The notes beneath the pieces are model-generated. The model worked only from the letters and a program-made list of their open reading frames with translations. It was not told the DNA's origin and made no database searches. A DNA stretch of 40,865 nt, from the sequence record PQ785851.1, one strand, 5' to 3'. The DNA comes from a phage. The translations under genes and the position numbers were made by a program. Every line of letters begins with the position of its first letter. The stretch's first letter is position 1. Shown here in pieces: positions 3,817-33,815 of the stretch.

Positions 3817-3861
3817 AATAGCACGATTTGCTAAAGACAAGATGCAATCTTTTGGTATATT
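3817..3861 (+). promoter_or_regulatory. promoter-like module, conserved 22-bp element family (copy b)
   Basis: AATAGCAC-GATT-TGCTAAAGAC, 17 bp, TATATT (TG two bases upstream). Confidence 0.45.
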
Positions 3862-3912: not shown

Positions 3913-4578
3913 ATGAACCTAGCTCTACTAAATGAAGATGTGAAAATGAACAGTTATCAGTTTTTGAATGAAGTCATCAATCCAGCGAGATTGATCGCTG
4001 GCGAGTCTGACGTTCGACACAATGACTTTGTTGAGAGGATTGAGGATGAGCTTGATGGGTTTGAGTTTGACTACGAAAGTTTCGTAATCAAAAGCGATGG
4101 AAGAGGAGGTTATAGAAAGTCAATTAATTCACCAGTGCTTAATATGGAACAGATGCTTCTTGTTGGAATGCGTGAGTCAAAGTCTGTTCGCCGATCTGTT
4201 CTTGAAAAGCGCAAGGAGATGCAAAACACAATCAACAAACAGGCAGAAGTAATCACCAAGATGGTAAGCATTGATGAACTAAAAGAGGCAAGAATTATGC
4301 TTGGTGTGGCTAATGCGCAGAACGCTCACCTTAGCCAGCGAATTGTTGCTGAGCAGCGCATTAACGAAATACTTCTTATGGATAAGAGCATTGACGAGAA
4401 ACTTGACCTTCTCGCTTGCGAGGCTCGCCAGTGCTGGGCATCACGCTCAGACGAAATGGAGGAGAGATTTAAGTATGAAGCTCAATGTTTTGCTCTTAAA
4501 GAAAAAACGGAAGCACTGACCGGATTGATCGAGAATAAACTTGGCATCGACATTAAACTGTTGCTGGAAAAGAAATAG
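3913..4578 (+). CDS. putative Rha-like phage regulatory protein
   Basis: 221 aa; N-terminal ...ESDVRHNDFVERIEDEL... resembles the Rha core as I recall it; coiled-coil-like C-terminus. Confidence 0.3.
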   Translation: MNLALLNEDVKMNSYQFLNEVINPARLIAGESDVRHNDFVERIEDELDGFEFDYESFVIKSDGRGGYRKSINSPVLNMEQMLLVGMRESKSVRRSVLEKRKEMQNTINKQAEVITKMVSIDELKEARIMLGVANAQNAHLSQRIVAEQRINEILLMDKSIDEKLDLLACEARQCWASRSDEMEERFKYEAQCFALKEKTEALTGLIENKLGIDIKLLLEKK

Positions 4579-4659: not shown

Positions 4660-4764
4660 ATGACCAACTTAACTACTAACTTAATCGCAACTATCTCTGG
4701 CGCTGCTGTAACTGGTTTCTTTGTGTGGGTTCTGTTGCTGGCTTCGAATTTTAACGGTTTCTAA
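4660..4764 (+). CDS. small hydrophobic membrane peptide (34 aa)
   Basis: ATG at 4660; MTNLTTNLIATISGAAVTGFFVWVLLLASNFNGF; below the ORF-track size cutoff. Confidence 0.3.
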   Translation: MTNLTTNLIATISGAAVTGFFVWVLLLASNFNGF

Positions 4765-4775
4765 GGGGGTTCAGA

Positions 4776-4996
4776 TGAAGAAAATTATTGTAGCTGCGGC
4801 GTTAGTCCTGAGTGGCTGCTCGTCGATGCCTGAGCGCACTTGTACGGCTATTTATGAATCAGGTGGCGCAGAGTACTCGGTTTATGTTTTCGGTACGCAG
4901 CAACGCGGTGATGAACTCCTGTTGCGTGCTGGATACCCATTATCGTTCCATTACGTTTCAGAGAATAATTTCAAAGACCATGATTGTGGTGGTTGA
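4776..4996 (+). CDS. small lipoprotein (possible Cor/Llp-like exclusion protein)
   Basis: Strong RBS AAGGGGG before the ATG at 4776; signal peptide MKKIIVAAALVLSGC with lipobox LSGC; the track ORF 4721 begins upstream in the same frame. Confidence 0.5.
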
Positions 4997-12142: not shown

Positions 12143-12166
12143 TAAAAAAAGCCCCTAATGGGGCTT
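12143..12166 (-). terminator. intrinsic terminator / attenuator between M-like and L-like genes
   Basis: Hairpin AGCCCC-taat-GGGGCT followed by TTTTTTT on the minus strand, then RBS GGAG. Confidence 0.45.
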
Positions 12167-12169
12167 AGT

Positions 12170-12520
12170 TTAACGCATTGAGCTAAAGACTTCCACGAAT
12201 TGCATGCTTACAGTCTGAACTTCGCTACTTAATGGCGTTACACTGATGCTATCTTGCTGAATAACAAACAGCTTTAGTTCACCCTGCGGCGTAGTCCACG
12301 CGAAAGGTTTTACGATGTGATCAAAGCAGAAGCTCATTACTGCCTCCCACTCACGACCAACGTAGCTAACCGTGTATGTCCTCTTGTTCGTCCTGTAACC
12401 ACCAGTGCCACGCTGTTGGAAGCCGTTTCCAAATGAAACAATCATAACGTTATTGGAGTTGGTAAACGAAGAGCCACCATTAAGAACATTTAAGCACCAA
12501 TTAAAAGTTTGCAATGCCAT
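12170..12520 (-). CDS. minor tail protein (lambda M-like)
   Basis: 116 aa; immediately distal to the tape measure gene. Confidence 0.6.
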   Translation of the reverse strand: MALQTFNWCLNVLNGGSSFTNSNNVMIVSFGNGFQQRGTGGYRTNKRTYTVSYVGREWEAVMSFCFDHIVKPFAWTTPQGELKLFVIQQDSISVTPLSSEVQTVSMQFVEVFSSMR

Positions 12521-12551
12521 TTAAAATCCTTAGGGGCCGAAGCCCCACTAA

Positions 12552-15524
12552 TTAGTTGTAACCGCGCAAGAATGCATACGCCCTGCCGCCCTGCTGGAAT
12601 GACTTGCTGATTTCCTCAGCCACGATGACCTTGACTCCAGATTCTATCGCCTTAGCATCATTACTGCTACTAACTCCAGAGTTTACGTTAACCGTCACTC
12701 CACCAACACTGACATTCGTACCGCCGACAACTCCACCATTAGCATATCCAGATGGCCCACCAACAGCGCCGCCATTAGCATATCCGCGCATCAGCTTGTA
12801 CAGATTTTTAACACCAATCCTGTTGGTTGCTTCTTTGGTGAATACAAACTCACCTTTGTGAACAGTACCGGCAGGTTGATACTTCCCGCCATCACCAGTA
12901 TAGCCGCCGCCAGCAAAACCAAGCGCACTACCAATTGAGCCAATCGCGCCACCAGTGCCGCCGAAGCTACTTAAACTTGACTCAATCGCCTTAACAATAA
13001 GAAGCTGAGTTGCAATTCTTGCAATCTGCTTGAGTATGTTTACAGTAAACTCCCTGAAGTTTGTTTCTCCAGTGGTTACAAGGTCAGTAATCTGGTCAGT
13101 AATGCCTTCAAATACCTTAGTGGTTAAACTTCCGGCAATTGAGAAAGCATCTGTCGCGCTCTCTGCCCAATTTGCGAAGGATGACTGCACACCAGCAAGC
13201 CAGTTTTCACGTAGCGCATCCTCTTGAGCGTAGAAGTTACGCCTTGCTTCGAGTAAAGCCTGAAAATCAGTATCATCAACAGACCCACCTTTGTTTATCT
13301 GATTGGATTGAAGTGCCTGAAGCTCTTTTGCTCTTTGCTTCTCCCTGTCAGATAAATTAGCAGCAAGTGAAACATTACTTGCTTCATTCTTAATCTGCAC
13401 AGTCTTCTTGAGGTTGTCATCAAGTAACTTGTTTGACCTCTCCTGAAGCACAATCTGGTCACCAAGCTCAGCATTCTGTTTAGCTTGTTCAAGAATGATA
13501 TTCTTCTGCGCAAGTAGCTTGGACTGTGATTTTGTAAGCGTACCATCCGCTTTCCTTTGCTCAAGTATTGCAAACTTAGCTTCTTCCTGGAATAGCTGCT
13601 TGCGTTCGTTGCTTATTACATCATTTATCGTCCTGTGCTCTTGTAAAACCTTCAGCTGAGCCTGAAGAGCAAGAACGCCAGATTCATAAGATAAGGTTAA
13701 ATCCATTTCTTCTTTTACTGCCTTGTTCCTCTCACTCCTCGCTTTCTTTATCCCATCAAGCTCATCAGCTAGCGCCTTTCTTCTTGCTGCAAATTCCTTA
13801 TCTGTTGATGGTTTGTTGCCAGTTAGGTTGATATCGCTGTTTTCCTTAACATATCCCATCTCTCCCTTTCTGATCCTAGCATCTCGCTCAGCGATGCTTT
13901 TTGCTAACTCCTCGTTTTGCTTCTTGGATGCATCGACAACCTTTTGCTGCTCAGCAATTATGCCGTTACCTACATCACCAAGCCCCGGGATTGACTGAAG
14001 CGTCTTGGTTGCAGAGATAGCAAATTCACCAAGAAGAATGTCGCCTGAGTTTATAAACGACCTTATCTGCTCAATCGTACCAGCAACAACGTCAGTTATT
14101 AAGTTAAGAGCACCAAGTGTGCGCTTGCCGATGCTATCCCAAATTTCGATTACAAACTTCCTGAAGCTATTCCATGCACTTTCAAGGGGGTTAAGGCTTA
14201 GCGCAACATCTTCCAGCCTGTTCTCCATAACGTTAGCGAATAGCTCAGTAGCTGCCGTTACAGCCTCTGTCTCTCCTGCTGTCTTCCTCAAGTTCTCTAT
14301 GTGTTTTAACTGTCCGGACTGAAGGAAGTTAAACTGCTTATCGAGTGCAATCAGACCTTGAATGGGGTCCTTTGTAATCTGATCAAAGTACCCAAGAATA
14401 GTTTTCGAGTCAGTTGATGTTACAGCTGCCCATTGCGCGGTTGCCTTAGTTATCTTGTCTATCTGTGTAAGAGTTAGATTTCCGTTTGCTACAAGGCTAT
14501 TTGCTATCTCCTGAATAAGTCCGCGCGTGGCTAGTGTTGATCTCTCAATTACATCAACAACCTGATTTATCTGCGCTGTAGACGTGATAGTTGAGTTTCC
14601 AACCAGCGTTATCGTTGATGCCAGTCCGCGAGTGTTCTTGTCAGCCTGATAAGCCGCAACACCGAGAGCGCCAAGAGCCAAGCCCAAAGTCCCAACAACT
14701 GCTGTTAATGGGTTGATAGCTGCTAATGCAAACCTTGCCGTGTTAGCAATACCACCAAAGCTATCCTTAATCTGCCCACCCTGCTGAATTGCAATGAGCC
14801 AGATGGGGATGCCACCAGCAAGAGAGGTTCCGATATCTGTAATCTGAGCTGGTAGCTGTCGGATTGCTTGCTTGTACTGCCCGGCGCTTAAACCTGACTT
14901 AACAAAAGCGGAGCTTTGCTTCTGCAATTGAACAGCAGATGCCTCAGCGGACTTACTGATCCTGTCTATAATCGGCGCTGCCTGGTCACTAACGCCTAGC
15001 TGAGCAGCCTTAAGTTGAAGAAGTTCAGTCCTTGTTAAACTTGCAGCGTTAGCCTCGTTCTCAAGATATTGAATGAACTTCTGCGCCGATGCTGCTGCCT
15101 TTTCTTTATCTATTGATGCCTGGAGCGCGGCCCTTCCTTCTTCGCTAAGAGCAGCCTTAGACCTGTTGAGCTTATTGATTTGAGTTTCAATAACAGATCC
15201 AAGCCTAAAGAATTCTTCGTCAGGAACGATTCCTGCTGCAAATGCCTTATCTAATTCAGTTGCCGCTTTCTGCAAATTCTGGAATTTAGCGGCGGTTGGG
15301 TCTATGGCTTGCTGAAGTGATGCGAAAGATTTGCGTTGCTCCTCAAGCTGCCTTGCGGTATCTCTAGCTTGAGTTTTGGCGACAAGCTCAGCATTAACGA
15401 ACTCACTAATCCCAGAGGCTGCTTGTTGGTTTGCCTGCCTGAACTTTTGTAGGGATTGTGTACCCCTGTCTACTTGCGAGACGTCGACCGCTAGCGTGAT
15501 GCCAGCAATTTCATTAGTTGCCAT
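12552..15524 (-). CDS. tail tape measure protein
   Basis: About 990 aa; long coiled-coil region, Gly-rich hydrophobic segments; likely start ATG at 15524 with RBS GGAGACAAT (track ORF is open to 15575). Confidence 0.85.
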
Positions 15525-15561
15525 ATTGTCTCCATAATAAAAAAGCCACCCCGAAGGATGG

Positions 15562-15813
15562 CTATCGCTTAGCATTCATCATATCTAAAGCTTTCGCTTC
15601 AAGTATTCTGATATCGTTAAGTACCATTTCGTCATCATCTATTTTATAGACTTTGAACAAGAATGGAAGGCAATTATAGTCAAGGCCAGTAGCGCCTGAT
15701 GCGCCAACTCTCCATTGTGTGGACATTGCACAGTATACGTCCCAGCTTTGCATCATTGTTTCATCAAAGTGCAACTCTTCAGGCTCCTCACCTTCATAGT
15801 CGGAACGTTTCAT
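15562..15813 (-). CDS. tail assembly chaperone, frameshift-extension (T-like) portion
   Basis: ORF is in the -1 frame relative to 15876..16190; the frame is open from the slippery site A_AAA_AAC (15877-15883) to this ORF. Confidence 0.5.
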
Positions 15814-15875: not shown

Positions 15876-16190
15876 TTAGTTTTTTACTCGCTGACCTGCA
15901 AGTGCTTTCATGTAGCTATCCATCAGTGATGGCACGGCGCCTGGGAAAAGGTTTGCAAACTCATCAACGTTCTCATCGTTAAATGGCTCTTCTAAGTCCC
16001 AGTCAGAGCAGATTTCATTAATCAGTTCCTTAGTACTGAAGTTTTCACGATTAAGAATCTCCTGCAACTCGGATGATTTCTTGTGCTTAACTGTCAATAC
16101 AACTTCAGCATCTTCACCATTCGCCAGTTGAAACTTAACTGGGAGTTTAAAGTCAGGCAGCGCCTTGAGTGAAAGTTTAAATTTGGCCAT
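15876..16190 (-). CDS. tail assembly chaperone (lambda G-like)
   Basis: 104 aa, acidic, immediately upstream of the tape measure gene; ends in heptamer A AAA AAC. Confidence 0.55.
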   Translation of the reverse strand: MAKFKLSLKALPDFKLPVKFQLANGEDAEVVLTVKHKKSSELQEILNRENFSTKELINEICSDWDLEEPFNDENVDEFANLFPGAVPSLMDSYMKALAGQRVKN

Positions 16191-16235
16191 CTCGTTATCT
16201 CCTTTGTTTATGATTTGGTGATTGTATCACATAAA

Positions 16236-16616
16236 TTATTTGGTGTGGAAGTGCGCTGCTTTATTTGCAAACTCATCAGTTGCTGAGCCGATTGACCAAG
16301 GTTTAGTCATTACTTCATTAATTTCTTTTTGGCTAACATCAGCCTCGCGATTGAATTCTTTGTTAACAACCTTAACAATCAGAGTGTAAATTATAACATT
16401 ACGTTCGCATTCAATTTCTGAAGTTTTCATGATTGCATCTCTCATCTCATGAGCATCAATTGCACTAACTTTTGATAACTCACCATGAACGAGACTGAAG
16501 CTCATGTTCTTACACATGTTTACAGCTTTTGCCATGTCCATTTCTTTCTGTTTAGTTTCACCAATGTTACAACCAGTTAAAGCAAGTGCGATTACTGCGG
16601 CGATGATAGCTTTCAT
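16236..16616 (-). CDS. lipoprotein moron inside the tail gene cluster
   Basis: 126 aa; signal peptide MKAIIAAVIALALTGC with lipobox LTGC; has its own promoter-like module upstream, which follows a terminator. Confidence 0.6.
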   Translation of the reverse strand: MKAIIAAVIALALTGCNIGETKQKEMDMAKAVNMCKNMSFSLVHGELSKVSAIDAHEMRDAIMKTSEIECERNVIIYTLIVKVVNKEFNREADVSQKEINEVMTKPWSIGSATDEFANKAAHFHTK

Positions 16617-16645
16617 TTTGATTTCCTTCGTTCATTTCGTTTCGA

Positions 16646-16697
16646 TGAATGAACTATACAGCAACCCACGGCTTAGTCTTTAACAAAAAGTGCTATT
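16646..16697 (-). promoter_or_regulatory. promoter-like module, conserved 22-bp element family (copy k), drives the lipoprotein moron
   Basis: Minus strand reads AATAGCAC-TTTT-TGTTAAAGAC, 17 bp, TATAGT, 6 nt (tcattc), ATCGAAACGAAATG. Confidence 0.5.
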
Positions 16698-16699
16698 AA

Positions 16700-16727
16700 T
16701 AAAAAACCCTCCGAAGAGGGTTAATTT
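16700..16727 (-). terminator. rho-independent terminator after the major tail gene
   Basis: Hairpin AACCCTC-ttcg-GAGGGTT followed by a T-run on the minus strand. Confidence 0.6.
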
Positions 16728-17387
16728 TTATGCCAGTTCAGAAGCTACAGAACTCAGCCTTCCGCGGATGGACACCGCGATGGATACGGTTTCAATTTCG
16801 TTAACACCAATGCTTGGGGTGTCGTTGAAAGCGATAGTGCCGGACTGTAAACGCATCTCCTGTGCACGCGGCACGAACAGACGAATTGCAACAACCTGAC
16901 CTGACTCATCGTAGTTACGCAGAATCGGATATACCGGGTTGGTGTATTCGTGCGCGAACGTGTAGGTGTTAGTTACAGCAGACTTATAGGTTGGAATCTG
17001 CTGTTCACGGTCATCGGACAAACACTGGAAGTTAACGAACTGCTGTTCACCACCGTCAGTGGATACGTCCTGAACACAAGGAACCTCAAACCAGCTAAGA
17101 ATCTTAACCACTTCGCCAGTTAAACCGGCCGGGAACTTGGTGGTGTTGGAGGTATCAATACCTTCAACGGTTACAGTTGAACCAGATACTGCGGTAACGC
17201 GAACTTGCTTGTCAGCCAGCAGGGTTGAAGCTGAGCTGGTAAACAGAAGGTAATCACCGCGAGCAATATCTTCAACGCTGGATAAAGTTAAAACAGGAGT
17301 AGCGGCGTTGGAAATCGCGGTTACGTCGATAGTAGCTCCCCTGGTGCCTTCTACGAAGACCTGAGTGCCGTTACTAAGATGGGCCAT
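16728..17387 (-). CDS. major tail protein (by position)
   Basis: 219 aa; immediately upstream of the G/T chaperone pair; followed by its own terminator. Confidence 0.5.
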   Translation of the reverse strand: MAHLSNGTQVFVEGTRGATIDVTAISNAATPVLTLSSVEDIARGDYLLFTSSASTLLADKQVRVTAVSGSTVTVEGIDTSNTTKFPAGLTGEVVKILSWFEVPCVQDVSTDGGEQQFVNFQCLSDDREQQIPTYKSAVTNTYTFAHEYTNPVYPILRNYDESGQVVAIRLFVPRAQEMRLQSGTIAFNDTPSIGVNEIETVSIAVSIRGRLSSVASELA

Positions 17388-19341: not shown

Positions 19342-19364
19342 AAAAAAGCCCTCCTGAGAGGGCA
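19342..19364 (-). terminator. rho-independent terminator after the major capsid gene
   Basis: Hairpin GCCCTC-tcag-GAGGGC followed by a T-run on the minus strand. Confidence 0.6.
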
Positions 19365-20422: not shown

Positions 20423-20446
20423 AAAAAAAACCTCCCGAAGGAGGCT
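20423..20446 (-). terminator. rho-independent terminator
   Basis: Hairpin CCTCC-ttcg-GGAGG followed by a T-run on the minus strand. Confidence 0.55.
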
Positions 20447-20465
20447 TATTTAATTAAGGATAATC

Positions 20466-32616: not shown

Positions 32617-32646
32617 AAATAGCCCCATTACGGGGCTTTTTTGTTT
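32617..32646. terminator. bidirectional rho-independent terminator between convergent operons
   Basis: Hairpin AGCCCC-atta-CGGGGCT with an A-run before and TTTTTTGTTTTT after. Confidence 0.6.
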
Positions 32647-33014
32647 TTCCTGAATATTACCAAAAGCAGAATGATGATGATGCACAACATAATTCCACTT
32701 CCAACCCACGGGATTGCAGAAGAATCATTGTTTGTGATTTCAATCTTCTCAGCTGTGATTGTTGACGCTTTGATTGAGTTATCAGAAGTCTTCTTACCGC
32801 TTGAGCTATCAAGAGTGTCAACATTAGAGTTCTTCAACTCAGCCTTTGCATTGGAACTTGAATCAACCTTGTTTGTCAGACCTACGCCAACCTTATTGTT
32901 CTCCGCTCCAGCCTGGGCGCTAATCTCTGGCTTACTGCCAATCAATCCGGTCAGTGCTGATGTTGCCGAACAACCAGAAAGCAGAATCACCGCAGCAATT
33001 AATACAACCTTCAT
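32628..33014 (-). CDS. unimolecular spanin (lipoprotein with C-terminal transmembrane anchor)
   Basis: 128 aa; N-terminal lipobox LLSGC; C-terminal helix IPWVGSGIMLCIIIILLLVIF then RKNKKAP; last gene of the lysis cassette. Confidence 0.6.
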   Translation of the reverse strand: MKVVLIAAVILLSGCSATSALTGLIGSKPEISAQAGAENNKVGVGLTNKVDSSSNAKAELKNSNVDTLDSSSGKKTSDNSIKASTITAEKIEITNNDSSAIPWVGSGIMLCIIIILLLVIFRKNKKAP

Positions 33015-33496
33015 TTACCAACCCCACTTAAGCATAATTTTATTTCCTCGTTGCGCCTGTTCACGAGCCCCTTGACGACAACCTTCTTACCATTCTTGGT
33101 TATCTTGTTCCACATCCCGAGAGCCTTGCAACCCTCCTCAATCTTACCTTGGTTAATAAGCATTACTGCCGTGGACTTCCTCATTGCAGAGCCGCCAACG
33201 TTATAACTAAAACTGATTAATGCCGCTCTTGTTTCTGGAGAGATAGGGTATGTCACCGCATCCTGAACATACTTCCCATGAATCTGAATGTGCTTCTCAA
33301 GCAGATTCCGGCACTCCCTGTTACTGTACCTCTTACCCCATACAACATCAGGGCCAGTAATGCCAGCACAGACCGTAGGGATTCCTGCAATGTCCATGTA
33401 AGGCTTGTACTCAACGCCCTCTACAAGCTCAATAATCGGCGCTGCGATGTATATTGCCGCTGCCGTCGCTGCACTAATTACCAGCTTCTGCTTCAT
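33011..33496 (-). CDS. SAR endolysin (lysozyme, P21 R-like)
   Basis: 161 aa; N-terminal signal-anchor-release helix LVISAATAAAIYIAAPII; core EGVEYKPYMDIAGIPTVCAGITG...SFSYNVG...INQG. Confidence 0.8.
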   Translation of the reverse strand: MKQKLVISAATAAAIYIAAPIIELVEGVEYKPYMDIAGIPTVCAGITGPDVVWGKRYSNRECRNLLEKHIQIHGKYVQDAVTYPISPETRAALISFSYNVGGSAMRKSTAVMLINQGKIEEGCKALGMWNKITKNGKKVVVKGLVNRRNEEIKLCLSGVGK

Positions 33497-33711
33497 TACT
33501 TACTCCTAATATTGATAGCTTTTTTTAAATCTCCTGACTCCAGCGCCTTCCTGATTGCCTGGCTATCCTTAAACTTCCAGTAAGCTCCCCACAACCCGAA
33601 AACAACAAGAGCTATAAGGCTGATTATTGCGATTGTCATTTGACCAGTTGCGGCGCCAGTTACAGCCGCCCCACCTGTTGATGCCGTAGCGGCGTTAATT
33701 ACTTCCCTCAC
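33496..33711 (-). CDS. pinholin-type holin
   Basis: Likely GTG start at 33711 with RBS AAAGGTGA; two hydrophobic segments; track ORF extends to a TTG at 33789. Confidence 0.5.
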   Translation of the reverse strand: MREVINAATASTGGAAVTGAATGQMTIAIISLIALVVFGLWGAYWKFKDSQAIRKALESGDLKKAINIRSK

Positions 33712-33784
33712 GTGATCACCTTTAAATCCTAATTTGTCAATAGATAGTGTAAATATAATACAGTAGGCAAGTGTGGATTGTAAG

Positions 33785-33815
33785 CACAAAAAAGGGGAGC
33801 CAAAAGGCCCCCCGC
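33785..33815 (-). terminator. putative terminator upstream of the lysis cassette
   Basis: Imperfect hairpin GGGGGGCC-tttt-GGCTCCCC followed by a T-run on the minus strand. Confidence 0.35.

Follow-up and report, generated by a model that had tools for sequence, protein, structure and literature searches.

Why should a virulent coliphage carry a gene for a small lipoprotein in the midst of its tail genes, and what would the protein do in the infected cell? The question is raised by positions 16236-16727 of the phage DNA record PQ785851.1, whose whole stretch of 40,865 nucleotides (nt) was analysed and is called the window here. The window phage is a virulent T1/Rtp-like coliphage, a Braunvirinae-like member of the Drexlerviridae, and its nearest match in this region is phage TR1 (94.5%). 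The gene is probably an envelope-acting accessory factor placed in a subfamily-specific insertion slot, which extends from the terminator of the tail-tube gene to the chaperone genes. Its most likely role, proposed by analogy and given a probability of roughly 0.4, would be to exclude other phages or to spare the progeny from cell debris, at a step other than the phage's own receptor. An envelope-remodelling accessory factor is proposed given the export signal and lipid anchor of the product, the AT-rich insert that encodes it, the non-homologous exported alternatives found in its place, and a promoter-like module shared with the exclusion gene cor and with non-structural genes.

The gene and its predicted product

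The gene and its signal peptide are located as follows.

16236-16616, minus strand: prolipoprotein gene, 126 amino acids (aa), start MKAIIAAVIALALTGCNIGE, stop at 16236
16572-16616, minus strand: signal peptide, residues 1-15, followed by the codon of the lipid-attachment residue Cys16 at 16569-16571

A preliminary description of this DNA had proposed a 126-aa open reading frame (ORF) with a lipoprotein signal peptide and the lipobox LTGC, and both are indeed found, together with an AAGGA Shine-Dalgarno sequence; 19 of 20 family members have a lipobox. The N-terminus, MKAIIAAVIALALTGC, has Lys2 in the n-region, an uncharged hydrophobic h-region and the lipobox L-T-G-C with Cys16. It thereby conforms to the lipoprotein rule that was applied (positive n-region, hydrophobic h-region, [LVI][ASTVI][GAS]C, Cys at position 15-35). 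The Pfam model LPAM_1 scored 18.3 bits, slightly below its 20-bit cut-off. Among the 20 family members, the residue at +2 is Asn (Gly in one) and in none of them Asp. Under the Lol-avoidance rule, a +2 residue other than Asp leads to outer-membrane sorting. Given this rule, and given that Asp never occurs at +2, the mature lipoprotein is predicted to be sorted to the outer membrane, with its domain facing the periplasm. Throughout the superfamily, Cys35 and Cys70 never vary, and they probably form a disulfide in the periplasmic domain.

According to the AlphaFold model, the mature domain of about 110 aa (about 12 kDa) has a compact alpha/beta fold that is mainly helical, with a strand at 25-27, helices at 28-50 and 52-77, a second strand at 82-84, and helices at 96-104 and 109-123. 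Built on the more diverse alignment, the model has a predicted local distance difference test (pLDDT) of 84.4, and all five models lie at 77-84. The C-terminus (...AAHFHTK) has no hydrophobic tail.

Selection was analysed on nine orthologous sequences, namely the window, TR1 and seven metagenomic contigs, with 33 pairs for the ratio of non-synonymous to synonymous substitution rates (dN/dS). The median dN/dS of the lipoprotein gene over these pairs is 0.117, and its mean dN is 0.207, versus 0.059 for both the tail-tube and the chaperone genes, i.e., about 3.5-fold faster. The lipoprotein ORF is a genuine, selectively maintained gene, constrained yet quicker to change than its neighbours. In base composition it presents 37.3% GC, against 44.1% for the window and 49.7% for the tail-tube gene, which places it at the 3.5th percentile of 381-nt windows.

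Slot content among related phages

The flanking genes are the following.

16728-17387, minus strand: tail-tube gene (PF08813, 2e-68), upstream of the lipoprotein gene
15876-16190, minus strand: chaperone ORF (PF08748), downstream of the lipoprotein gene
15562-15813, minus strand: T chaperone ORF (DUF1799), downstream of the lipoprotein gene and followed by the tape measure

The gene for the tail terminator protein is also upstream, on the tail-tube side. Hence the position first assigned to the gene, between the major tail gene and the G/T chaperones, is correct, with the tail tube on one side and the chaperones and tape measure on the other. The surrounding structural operon is otherwise coupled, as had been described, given that the upstream genes overlap or abut.

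In T1, Hanrivervirus, Webervirus and Rogunavirinae the slot is empty and the tail tube leads directly to the chaperone (T1, grams, NJR15 and Sadiya were examined). The Braunvirinae were surveyed by separate tblastn record counts with no per-genome cross-check. A tail-tube protein at least 80% identical to that of the window occurs in 89 phage records, and the slot cargos are distributed as 82 records of an 82-aa type, five of the Rtp34 type and one of the window type. The latter is TR1, the only record with a window-type lipoprotein among 50,697 phage records (tblastn). These counts suggest the slot is essentially always filled in Braunvirinae.

A search of 5.8 billion proteins yielded 15 relatives of the lipoprotein, at 47-96% identity, and a profile search of 1.84 billion cluster representatives added only a 128-aa representative of the Rtp34 type (3e-13). 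All homologue contexts examined are the same slot. The lipoprotein family is thus very small and restricted to one phage lineage. Rtp34 of phage Rtp, bas01_0018 of AugustePiccard and their counterparts in MM01 and RobRod40 are true homologues (BLASTP 31% identity, 1e-12), which share with the window protein the slot, the lipobox, an N-x-C-x-N motif and the second Cys, and whose predicted fold matches with a template modelling score (TM) of 0.72. They differ in being only about 30% identical, and they are annotated as "hypothetical protein" or "lipoprotein"; a literature search found no mention of rtp34 in a phage context. The Warwickvirus phages BEK12A and BEK26 have a lipoprotein with 29% identity to the Rtp34 type (144 aa in BEK12A, L018 1741-2175); its gene is flanked by the helicase operon and the Dam methylase gene and immediately follows a copy of the repeat module described below. 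Given this lipoprotein gene lies outside the slot, the family occupies more than one genome position.

One of the checks proposed at the outset was whether the gene is variably present at this locus in related genomes, and it is: the cargo differs even between close relatives. Phages ES, CY1, Rao1, TR2/3, IME542, ACG-M12 and others have the same terminator, repeat and leader, followed by an unrelated protein of 82-88 aa. Homology between the lipoprotein and the 82-aa families was ruled out by an hhalign probability of 0.25%. In comparison with phage ES, sliding identity is 0.8 or more up to ~16630, drops there to about 0 and recovers at ~16212, and the megablast matches of 82-aa-type phages begin at query base 24 and are split in two pieces. 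The sole stretch that differs from the close relatives of the 82-aa type is therefore a short one.

~16212-16630, minus strand: exchangeable cassette, consisting of the ribosome-binding site (RBS), the ORF and ~23 nt

The terminator, the repeat module and the leader are fixtures of the slot, and only the RBS and ORF are exchanged as cargo. The earlier view that promoter and terminator are the gene's own is incorrect in this respect, since both belong to the slot and the exchanged piece is limited to ~16212-16630. The downstream tail region is best matched by Rao1, of the 82-aa type (89%), whereas TR1, which has the same lipoprotein, matches it at 64%. Slot content is hence not linked to the remainder of the tail module. 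A link of slot cargo to receptor type or tail genes was sought, and none was found.

All three cargo types present an export signal and a conserved Cys pair. The 82-aa protein (phrog_22925) resembles the window protein in having the same slot, terminator, repeat and leader, an N-terminal export signal and two conserved cysteines; it differs in being non-homologous and in having no lipobox, and signal peptidase I probably cuts it behind Ala32, which is invariant. In a metagenomic sequence, P0013 (L005 5001-5426), the N-terminal signal/anchor of the ACG-M12-type 88-aa protein is joined to a mature domain of the lipoprotein family; the junction of this chimera is a shared ...TG(E) motif, and the lipobox Cys is lost. 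In CY1, a 46-aa membrane peptide precedes the 82-aa slot gene (L003 ~2388-2528), much as a 34-aa one precedes cor in the window.

These distributions bear on two other explanations. That the protein is a component of the virion or of tail assembly is scarcely credible. Such a role would agree with its location among the tail morphogenesis genes and with a slot that seems never to be vacant in Braunvirinae, yet the lipoprotein signal exports the protein from the cytoplasm, where tails are assembled, non-homologous replacements occur in relatives with nearly identical tail genes, and the protein is missing from other Drexlerviridae with homologous tails. A periplasmic factor for counter-defence or host manipulation, which might counteract, e.g., a host or prophage barrier located in the envelope, or a toxin that is imported, is unlikely. 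Such a factor would account for the export targeting, for a dN about 3.5-fold above that of the neighbours, for the non-homologous alternatives in the slot, which are typical of conflict loci, and for the confinement of the family to one phage lineage. However, no match to any defence-related model was obtained, there is no known envelope defence to pair the protein with, and the argument is inferential throughout.

Terminators and the repeat module

The slot begins with a terminator, and the next terminator-like site lies beyond the T chaperone ORF.

16697-16727, minus strand: rho-independent terminator of the tail-tube gene, with stem-loop 16705-16722 (AACCCTC-TTCG-GAGGGTT) and a T-run, -11.2 kcal/mol
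15544-15563, minus strand: first downstream terminator-like site, between the T chaperone ORF and the tape-measure start

The upstream terminator is kept in all relatives regardless of slot cargo, and in T1, where the slot is empty, a terminator is annotated at the equivalent position. Hence it is the terminator of the tail-tube gene. A terminator at 16700-16727 had been described as preceding the lipoprotein gene; its hairpin at 16705-16722 is real, although it belongs to the tail-tube gene and is a slot fixture. The gene had also been credited with a terminator of its own, and this has to be withdrawn: the terminator scan found no terminator-like site between the stop codon (16236) and the chaperone start (16190), nor any before 15544-15563. 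A transcript from the slot module would consequently cover the chaperone genes too.

Between the terminator and the start codon lie the elements of the promoter-like module and the leader, and a further promoter-like site is found at the end of the ORF.

16676-16696, minus strand: 21-nt Drexlerviridae direct repeat ATAGCACTTTTTGTTAAAGAC, the upstream half of the module, starting 80 nt before the start codon
16653-16658, minus strand: -10-like hexamer TATAGT, 22 nt downstream of TTGTTA
16617-16652, minus strand: leader with the conserved CATCGAAACGAAA motif, a weak hairpin and the AAGGA Shine-Dalgarno sequence (16624-16628)
16221-16249, minus strand: promoter-like site TCCACA-17-TACAAT with an upstream TG, overlapping the ORF end and directed into the chaperone genes

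The repeat in the slot is a copy of the known Drexlerviridae repeat ATAGCACnnnTTGnTAAAG, followed by a TAnnnT hexamer. A canonical sigma-70 promoter was ruled out, given that the sigma-70 scan made no call at the slot module, the best -35/-10 pairing is 8/12, below the scan threshold, and the gap between TTGTTA and TATAGT is 22 nt; the hexamer at the canonical -35 spacing (16 nt) from TATAGT is AAGACT. A sigma-54 reading of GTGGGTTGCT was dropped by eye, since the spacing of GG and GC is wrong and the motif is absent from relatives. The leader hairpin was likewise rejected as a structured RNA (-6.6 kcal/mol, z = -1.4, not significant), its sequence CATCGAAACGA being conserved and its pairing not.

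The 17-mer CACTTTTTGTTAAAGAC occurs four times in the window with at most three mismatches, versus 0.2 occurrences expected. A weight matrix yielded 11 copies in the window of a module of ~60 nt, composed of ATAGCAC-NNN-TTGCTAAAGAC, 16 nt, TAnnnT and often CATCGAAACGA, with 5' ends at 1970, 16696, 27525, 34101, 36435, 38926 and 40449 on the minus strand and at 3818, 4575, 29217 and 30027 on the plus strand. The modules score 20-33 bits, while mononucleotide-shuffled sequence gives 0-4 matches above 12 bits. A Shine-Dalgarno sequence and an ATG follow the module after 72-95 nt in 10 of the 11 copies, most of the other repeat copies have a TAnnnT hexamer at the same distance as the slot copy, and the CATCGAAACGAAA leader motif is common to seven of the 11. 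The spacing from TTGCTA to the hexamer is constant at ~22 nt across modules, which is not normal sigma-70 geometry. Thus, of the full promoter-like module proposed at 16646-16697, the module stands as one of 11 non-random, recurrent copies, but it is not a canonical sigma-70 site. In at least four modules, the stop codon of the upstream gene is the TAG within ATAGCAC.

The genes that come first after the modules include a helicase operon and an early cluster that runs up to a second helicase, as well as an antirepressor-like gene, a small ORF directly upstream of the holin gene (module 34101), and a 34-aa membrane peptide with cor behind it. Inside the structural block of ~20 kb, no module other than the slot copy is present, and the repeat of this copy is conserved across Braunvirinae slots. 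Given this class of module stands before cor and before genes for replication, early functions and lysis, the timing of expression of the lipoprotein gene is suggested to be like theirs. It is plausible that the gene is transcribed independently from the repeat module. A literature search found no transcriptome of a T1-like phage. The idea of an independently transcribed insert is thus retained in part: the DNA is extra, being absent from T1, grams, NJR15 and Sadiya, its GC content is deviant and a recurrent module lies upstream, yet it has no terminator of its own. The term moron is used in the Juhala/Hendrix sense, as summarised in PMC3594210.

A published account of phage TLS describes a repeat with consensus aaATAGCACnnnTTGnTAAAA, present in 21 copies that are co-oriented with genes and lie ~76 nt upstream of start codons, and reports it also in T1 and Rtp (PMC11447400). 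The slot repeat is similar in that it matches aaATAGCACnnnTTGnTAAAA, is co-oriented with its gene and lies ~80 nt (~76 nt in TLS) from the start (PMC11447400). The same account suggests that the repeat may act as a "stoperator" to which a repressor binds, as an enhancer site or as an UP element; its description of the repeat makes no mention of a fixed -10-like hexamer or of a conserved leader motif (PMC11447400).

In T1 (L026 4333-4351) and grams (L019 ~2530-2550), neither of which has a slot gene, the 21-nt repeat is found between the tail-tube terminator and the chaperone start in inverted orientation (TTTTAACAAAAAGTGCTAT), and the opposite strand has a TAnnnT hexamer at the customary spacing. 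Such an arrangement points either to an antisense start or to a binding site that works in both orientations, and possibly to a recombination anchor by which the slot gene could be acquired. The locus is a natural test bed for the 21-nt repeats, given one orientation is followed by a gene and the inverted one is not.

The promoter-like site at the ORF end includes an extended -10, TGaTACAAT, at 16221-16229, just before the chaperone gene. The other cargo types have TAATATAAT, TAATACAAT or TAATAGAAT at this place, and in Sadiya, whose slot is empty, TGTTATAAT follows the terminator immediately. These signals raise the alternative that the module serves mainly to resume transcription beyond the strong tail-tube terminator, such that the chaperone and tape-measure genes are expressed, the ORF being a minor passenger. 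The lack of a terminator between the ORF and the chaperone genes, with a transcript that would run to 15544, and the terminator followed by a promoter-like element at the junction in empty-slot phages are consistent with it. Nonetheless it is very unlikely, as the dN/dS of 0.12 and the conserved lipobox and cysteines indicate selection on the protein itself, a separate extended -10 lies just before the chaperone gene, and the slot is apparently never empty among the 89 Braunvirinae records.

The module ahead of the lysis genes raises another alternative, i.e., that the protein modulates lysis or envelope timing, as a periplasmic regulator of the holin/endolysin/spanin pathway or of outer-membrane integrity, to which the other cargos would be equivalent. 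The periplasmic T4 antiholin RI follows a similar logic. All slot cargos are small exported proteins, the slot is apparently always filled in Braunvirinae, which suggests a needed function, and the same repeat module lies directly upstream of the lysis genes (34101). We nevertheless regard this role as rather unlikely, because the holin/endolysin/spanin cassette is already complete at 32628-33789, other Drexlerviridae with homologous lysis genes have no slot gene, and no similarity to known lysis regulators was found. A spanin in particular was ruled out, since the lysis cassette at 32628-33789 includes an Rz-like spanin and the slot protein has neither a C-terminal membrane segment nor a partner gene.

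The phage's own receptor

Whether the lipoprotein masks the phage's own receptor can be assessed by comparison with the cor locus of the window.

4776-4996, plus strand: cor, encoding a 73-aa receptor-masking exclusion lipoprotein (phrog_1119, E 5e-27)
4660-4764, plus strand: ORF for a 34-aa hydrophobic membrane peptide, MTNLTTNLIATISGAAVTGFFVWVLLLASNFNGF, between the repeat module (4575) and cor
3913-4578, plus strand: antirepressor-like gene (phrog_8235, 2e-77) with its own repeat module, immediately upstream of the cor unit

The small lipoprotein gene at 4776-4996 had been mentioned as a possible second exclusion factor, and this was well placed, since it is identified as cor. It lies in a T1-type receptor-binding locus, with ~78% nucleotide identity to T1 and 84% to RobRod40. 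The 34-aa peptide ORF may be co-transcribed with cor. The antirepressor-like gene is present although the phage is virulent.

As originally proposed, the slot protein would be a factor of the Cor/Llp type, masking the periplasmic face of the phage's own terminal receptor. In agreement with the proposal, the protein resembles Llp, Cor and Rtp45 in having a conserved Cys pair and in being a lipoprotein predicted for the outer membrane, and the phage is a virulent T1-like one. On the other hand, the phage has a true Cor at 4776-4996 beside its T1-type receptor-binding locus. The slot gene (16.2-16.6 kb) lies ~11 kb from the receptor-binding/cor locus (~4.7-6.0 kb), whereas known receptor-masking factors are encoded beside the cognate receptor-binding gene (PMC8594841, PMC11990801). 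Its mature domain is about twice the size of Rtp45 and has a helical fold, with no homology to known exclusion factors.

The distribution of the Rtp34 type is also relevant. Rtp and AugustePiccard (Bas01), of the LptD-using group, have the Rtp34-type slot protein, and RobRod40 has the same slot type together with a T1-type cor locus. The use of LptD by Bas01 was established by resistance mapping (PMC8594841), and Rtp is placed in the LptD group via Rtp45, which binds LptDE (bioRxiv 10.1101/2025.07.07.663478). Given the Rtp34 type occurs with both LptD-type and T1-type loci, the slot protein does not track the terminal receptor. The analogy with own-receptor masking is hence weakened by the phage's own Cor, the lack of similarity, the distance of ~11 kb and a slot subfamily that is independent of the receptor, and we consider masking of the own receptor decidedly unlikely.

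Comparison with known systems and proposed role

The searches returned no function by homology. Pfam, PHROGs, NCBIfam and PADLOC gave only noise at the level of the signal peptide, and a sequence profile search of the PDB gave nothing. The slot protein has no PHROGs match to phrog_1119, unlike the window's own Cor. A fold search of viral and PDB libraries found no match outside its own family. Across the Pfam, PHROGs, PADLOC, NCBIfam and PDB searches, nothing that resembles a known exclusion protein in sequence or fold was found.

As a first precedent, the virulent siphophages T5 and Rtp encode Llp and Rtp45, respectively, which are small exclusion lipoproteins that face the periplasm (bioRxiv 10.1101/2025.07.07.663478), and Llp is expressed early in infection (PMC11990801; bioRxiv 10.1101/2025.07.07.663478). 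In comparison with Cor (of T1, phi80 and N15), Llp (of T5) and Rtp45 (of Rtp), a likeness is that cor of the window stands behind the same repeat module as the slot gene; the slot protein differs in that its mature domain is about twice that of Rtp45 (~6 kDa) and its gene is not beside the receptor-binding gene. A second precedent is the HK97 moron gp15; its gene adjoins the tape-measure gene within the tail operon, and the protein prevents the entry of DNA (PMC3594210). It is similarly an accessory insert beside chaperone/tape-measure genes that encodes a small envelope protein, with no receptor masking (PMC3594210). However, gp15 is YebO-like and resides in the inner membrane, its phage is temperate and expresses it as a prophage, and the gene has its own promoter and terminator (PMC3594210), while the window protein is a lipoprotein of a virulent phage and its gene has no terminator of its own. 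The Pfam scan gave no match to a YebO family.

Given the precedents of T5 Llp, T1 Cor, Rtp45 and the HK97 gp15 moron, exclusion or protection from debris is the most likely role of the slot protein, and superinfection exclusion is plausible on this analogy. The gene would be transcribed from the repeat-type module, apart from read-through of the tail operon. The precursor would be exported, acylated at Cys16 and, having no Asp at +2, sorted to the outer membrane, where a helical domain stabilised by the disulfide would face the periplasm. The lipoprotein would then alter the envelope of the infected cell, such that other phages could not complete infection or progeny would not be wasted on debris. 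The step acted on would be other than the phage's own terminal receptor, which is already covered by Cor; candidates are the masking of a different outer-membrane protein and the blocking of a periplasmic stage of DNA delivery.

Several points weigh against this proposal. Both the outer-membrane sorting and the disulfide are derived from general rules. Selection is purifying overall, with no sign of an arms race at the level of the whole gene, and the apparent occupancy of 100% fits a needed housekeeping role as well as a conflict gene. The promoter of the slot is non-canonical (8/12), and the repeat may instead act as a stoperator, an enhancer site or an UP element, which are the published alternatives (PMC11447400). 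The inverted copy in T1 and grams means the repeat may be an orientation-independent protein-binding site instead of part of a promoter. Lastly, the single P0013 chimera, which has no lipobox, may or may not be functional.

A more specific version of the exclusion reading, which we regard as doubtful, would have the slot encode interchangeable periplasmic effectors, either a helical domain of 12 kDa that is anchored by lipid or a disulfide mini-protein of 5 kDa that is free. Switched by the module, these would block a periplasmic step of DNA delivery after adsorption, e.g., the incoming tail tip or tape measure, and would have a previously unseen fold. The streptococcal lipoprotein Ltp and T4 Spackle are the comparison for such a block, and the slot effectors would be their Gram-negative counterpart.

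In any case, this uncharacterised lipoprotein family represents a type of phage accessory gene that is well known. T1/Rtp-like phages often contaminate laboratories and fermentations and are also phage-therapy candidates, and their known exclusion factors all adjoin the receptor-binding gene; the slot is a second envelope-directed accessory locus, with three cargos. If the cargos exclude phages or protect progeny, this would affect cocktail design and explain some cross-resistance among phages, and a new fold would be added to the small set of periplasmic anti-phage proteins.

Other observations in the structural region

Strong terminator-like hairpins are present 3' of several structural genes, among them those for the major capsid, the tail tube and the T chaperone ORF. 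They are all on the minus strand, as follows.

12149-12166, minus strand: terminator-like hairpin
15544-15563, minus strand: terminator-like hairpin
16705-16722, minus strand: terminator-like hairpin
19348-19363, minus strand: terminator-like hairpin
20428-20447, minus strand: terminator-like hairpin

This arrangement agrees with the "transcripton" layout proposed for the late region of T1. In two metagenomic relatives (L006 8918-9397 and L022 13918-14397), a gene for an HNH endonuclease (PF13392, 159 aa) is located between the tape-measure and minor-tail genes, and this insertion is absent from the corresponding position of the window (12520-12552).

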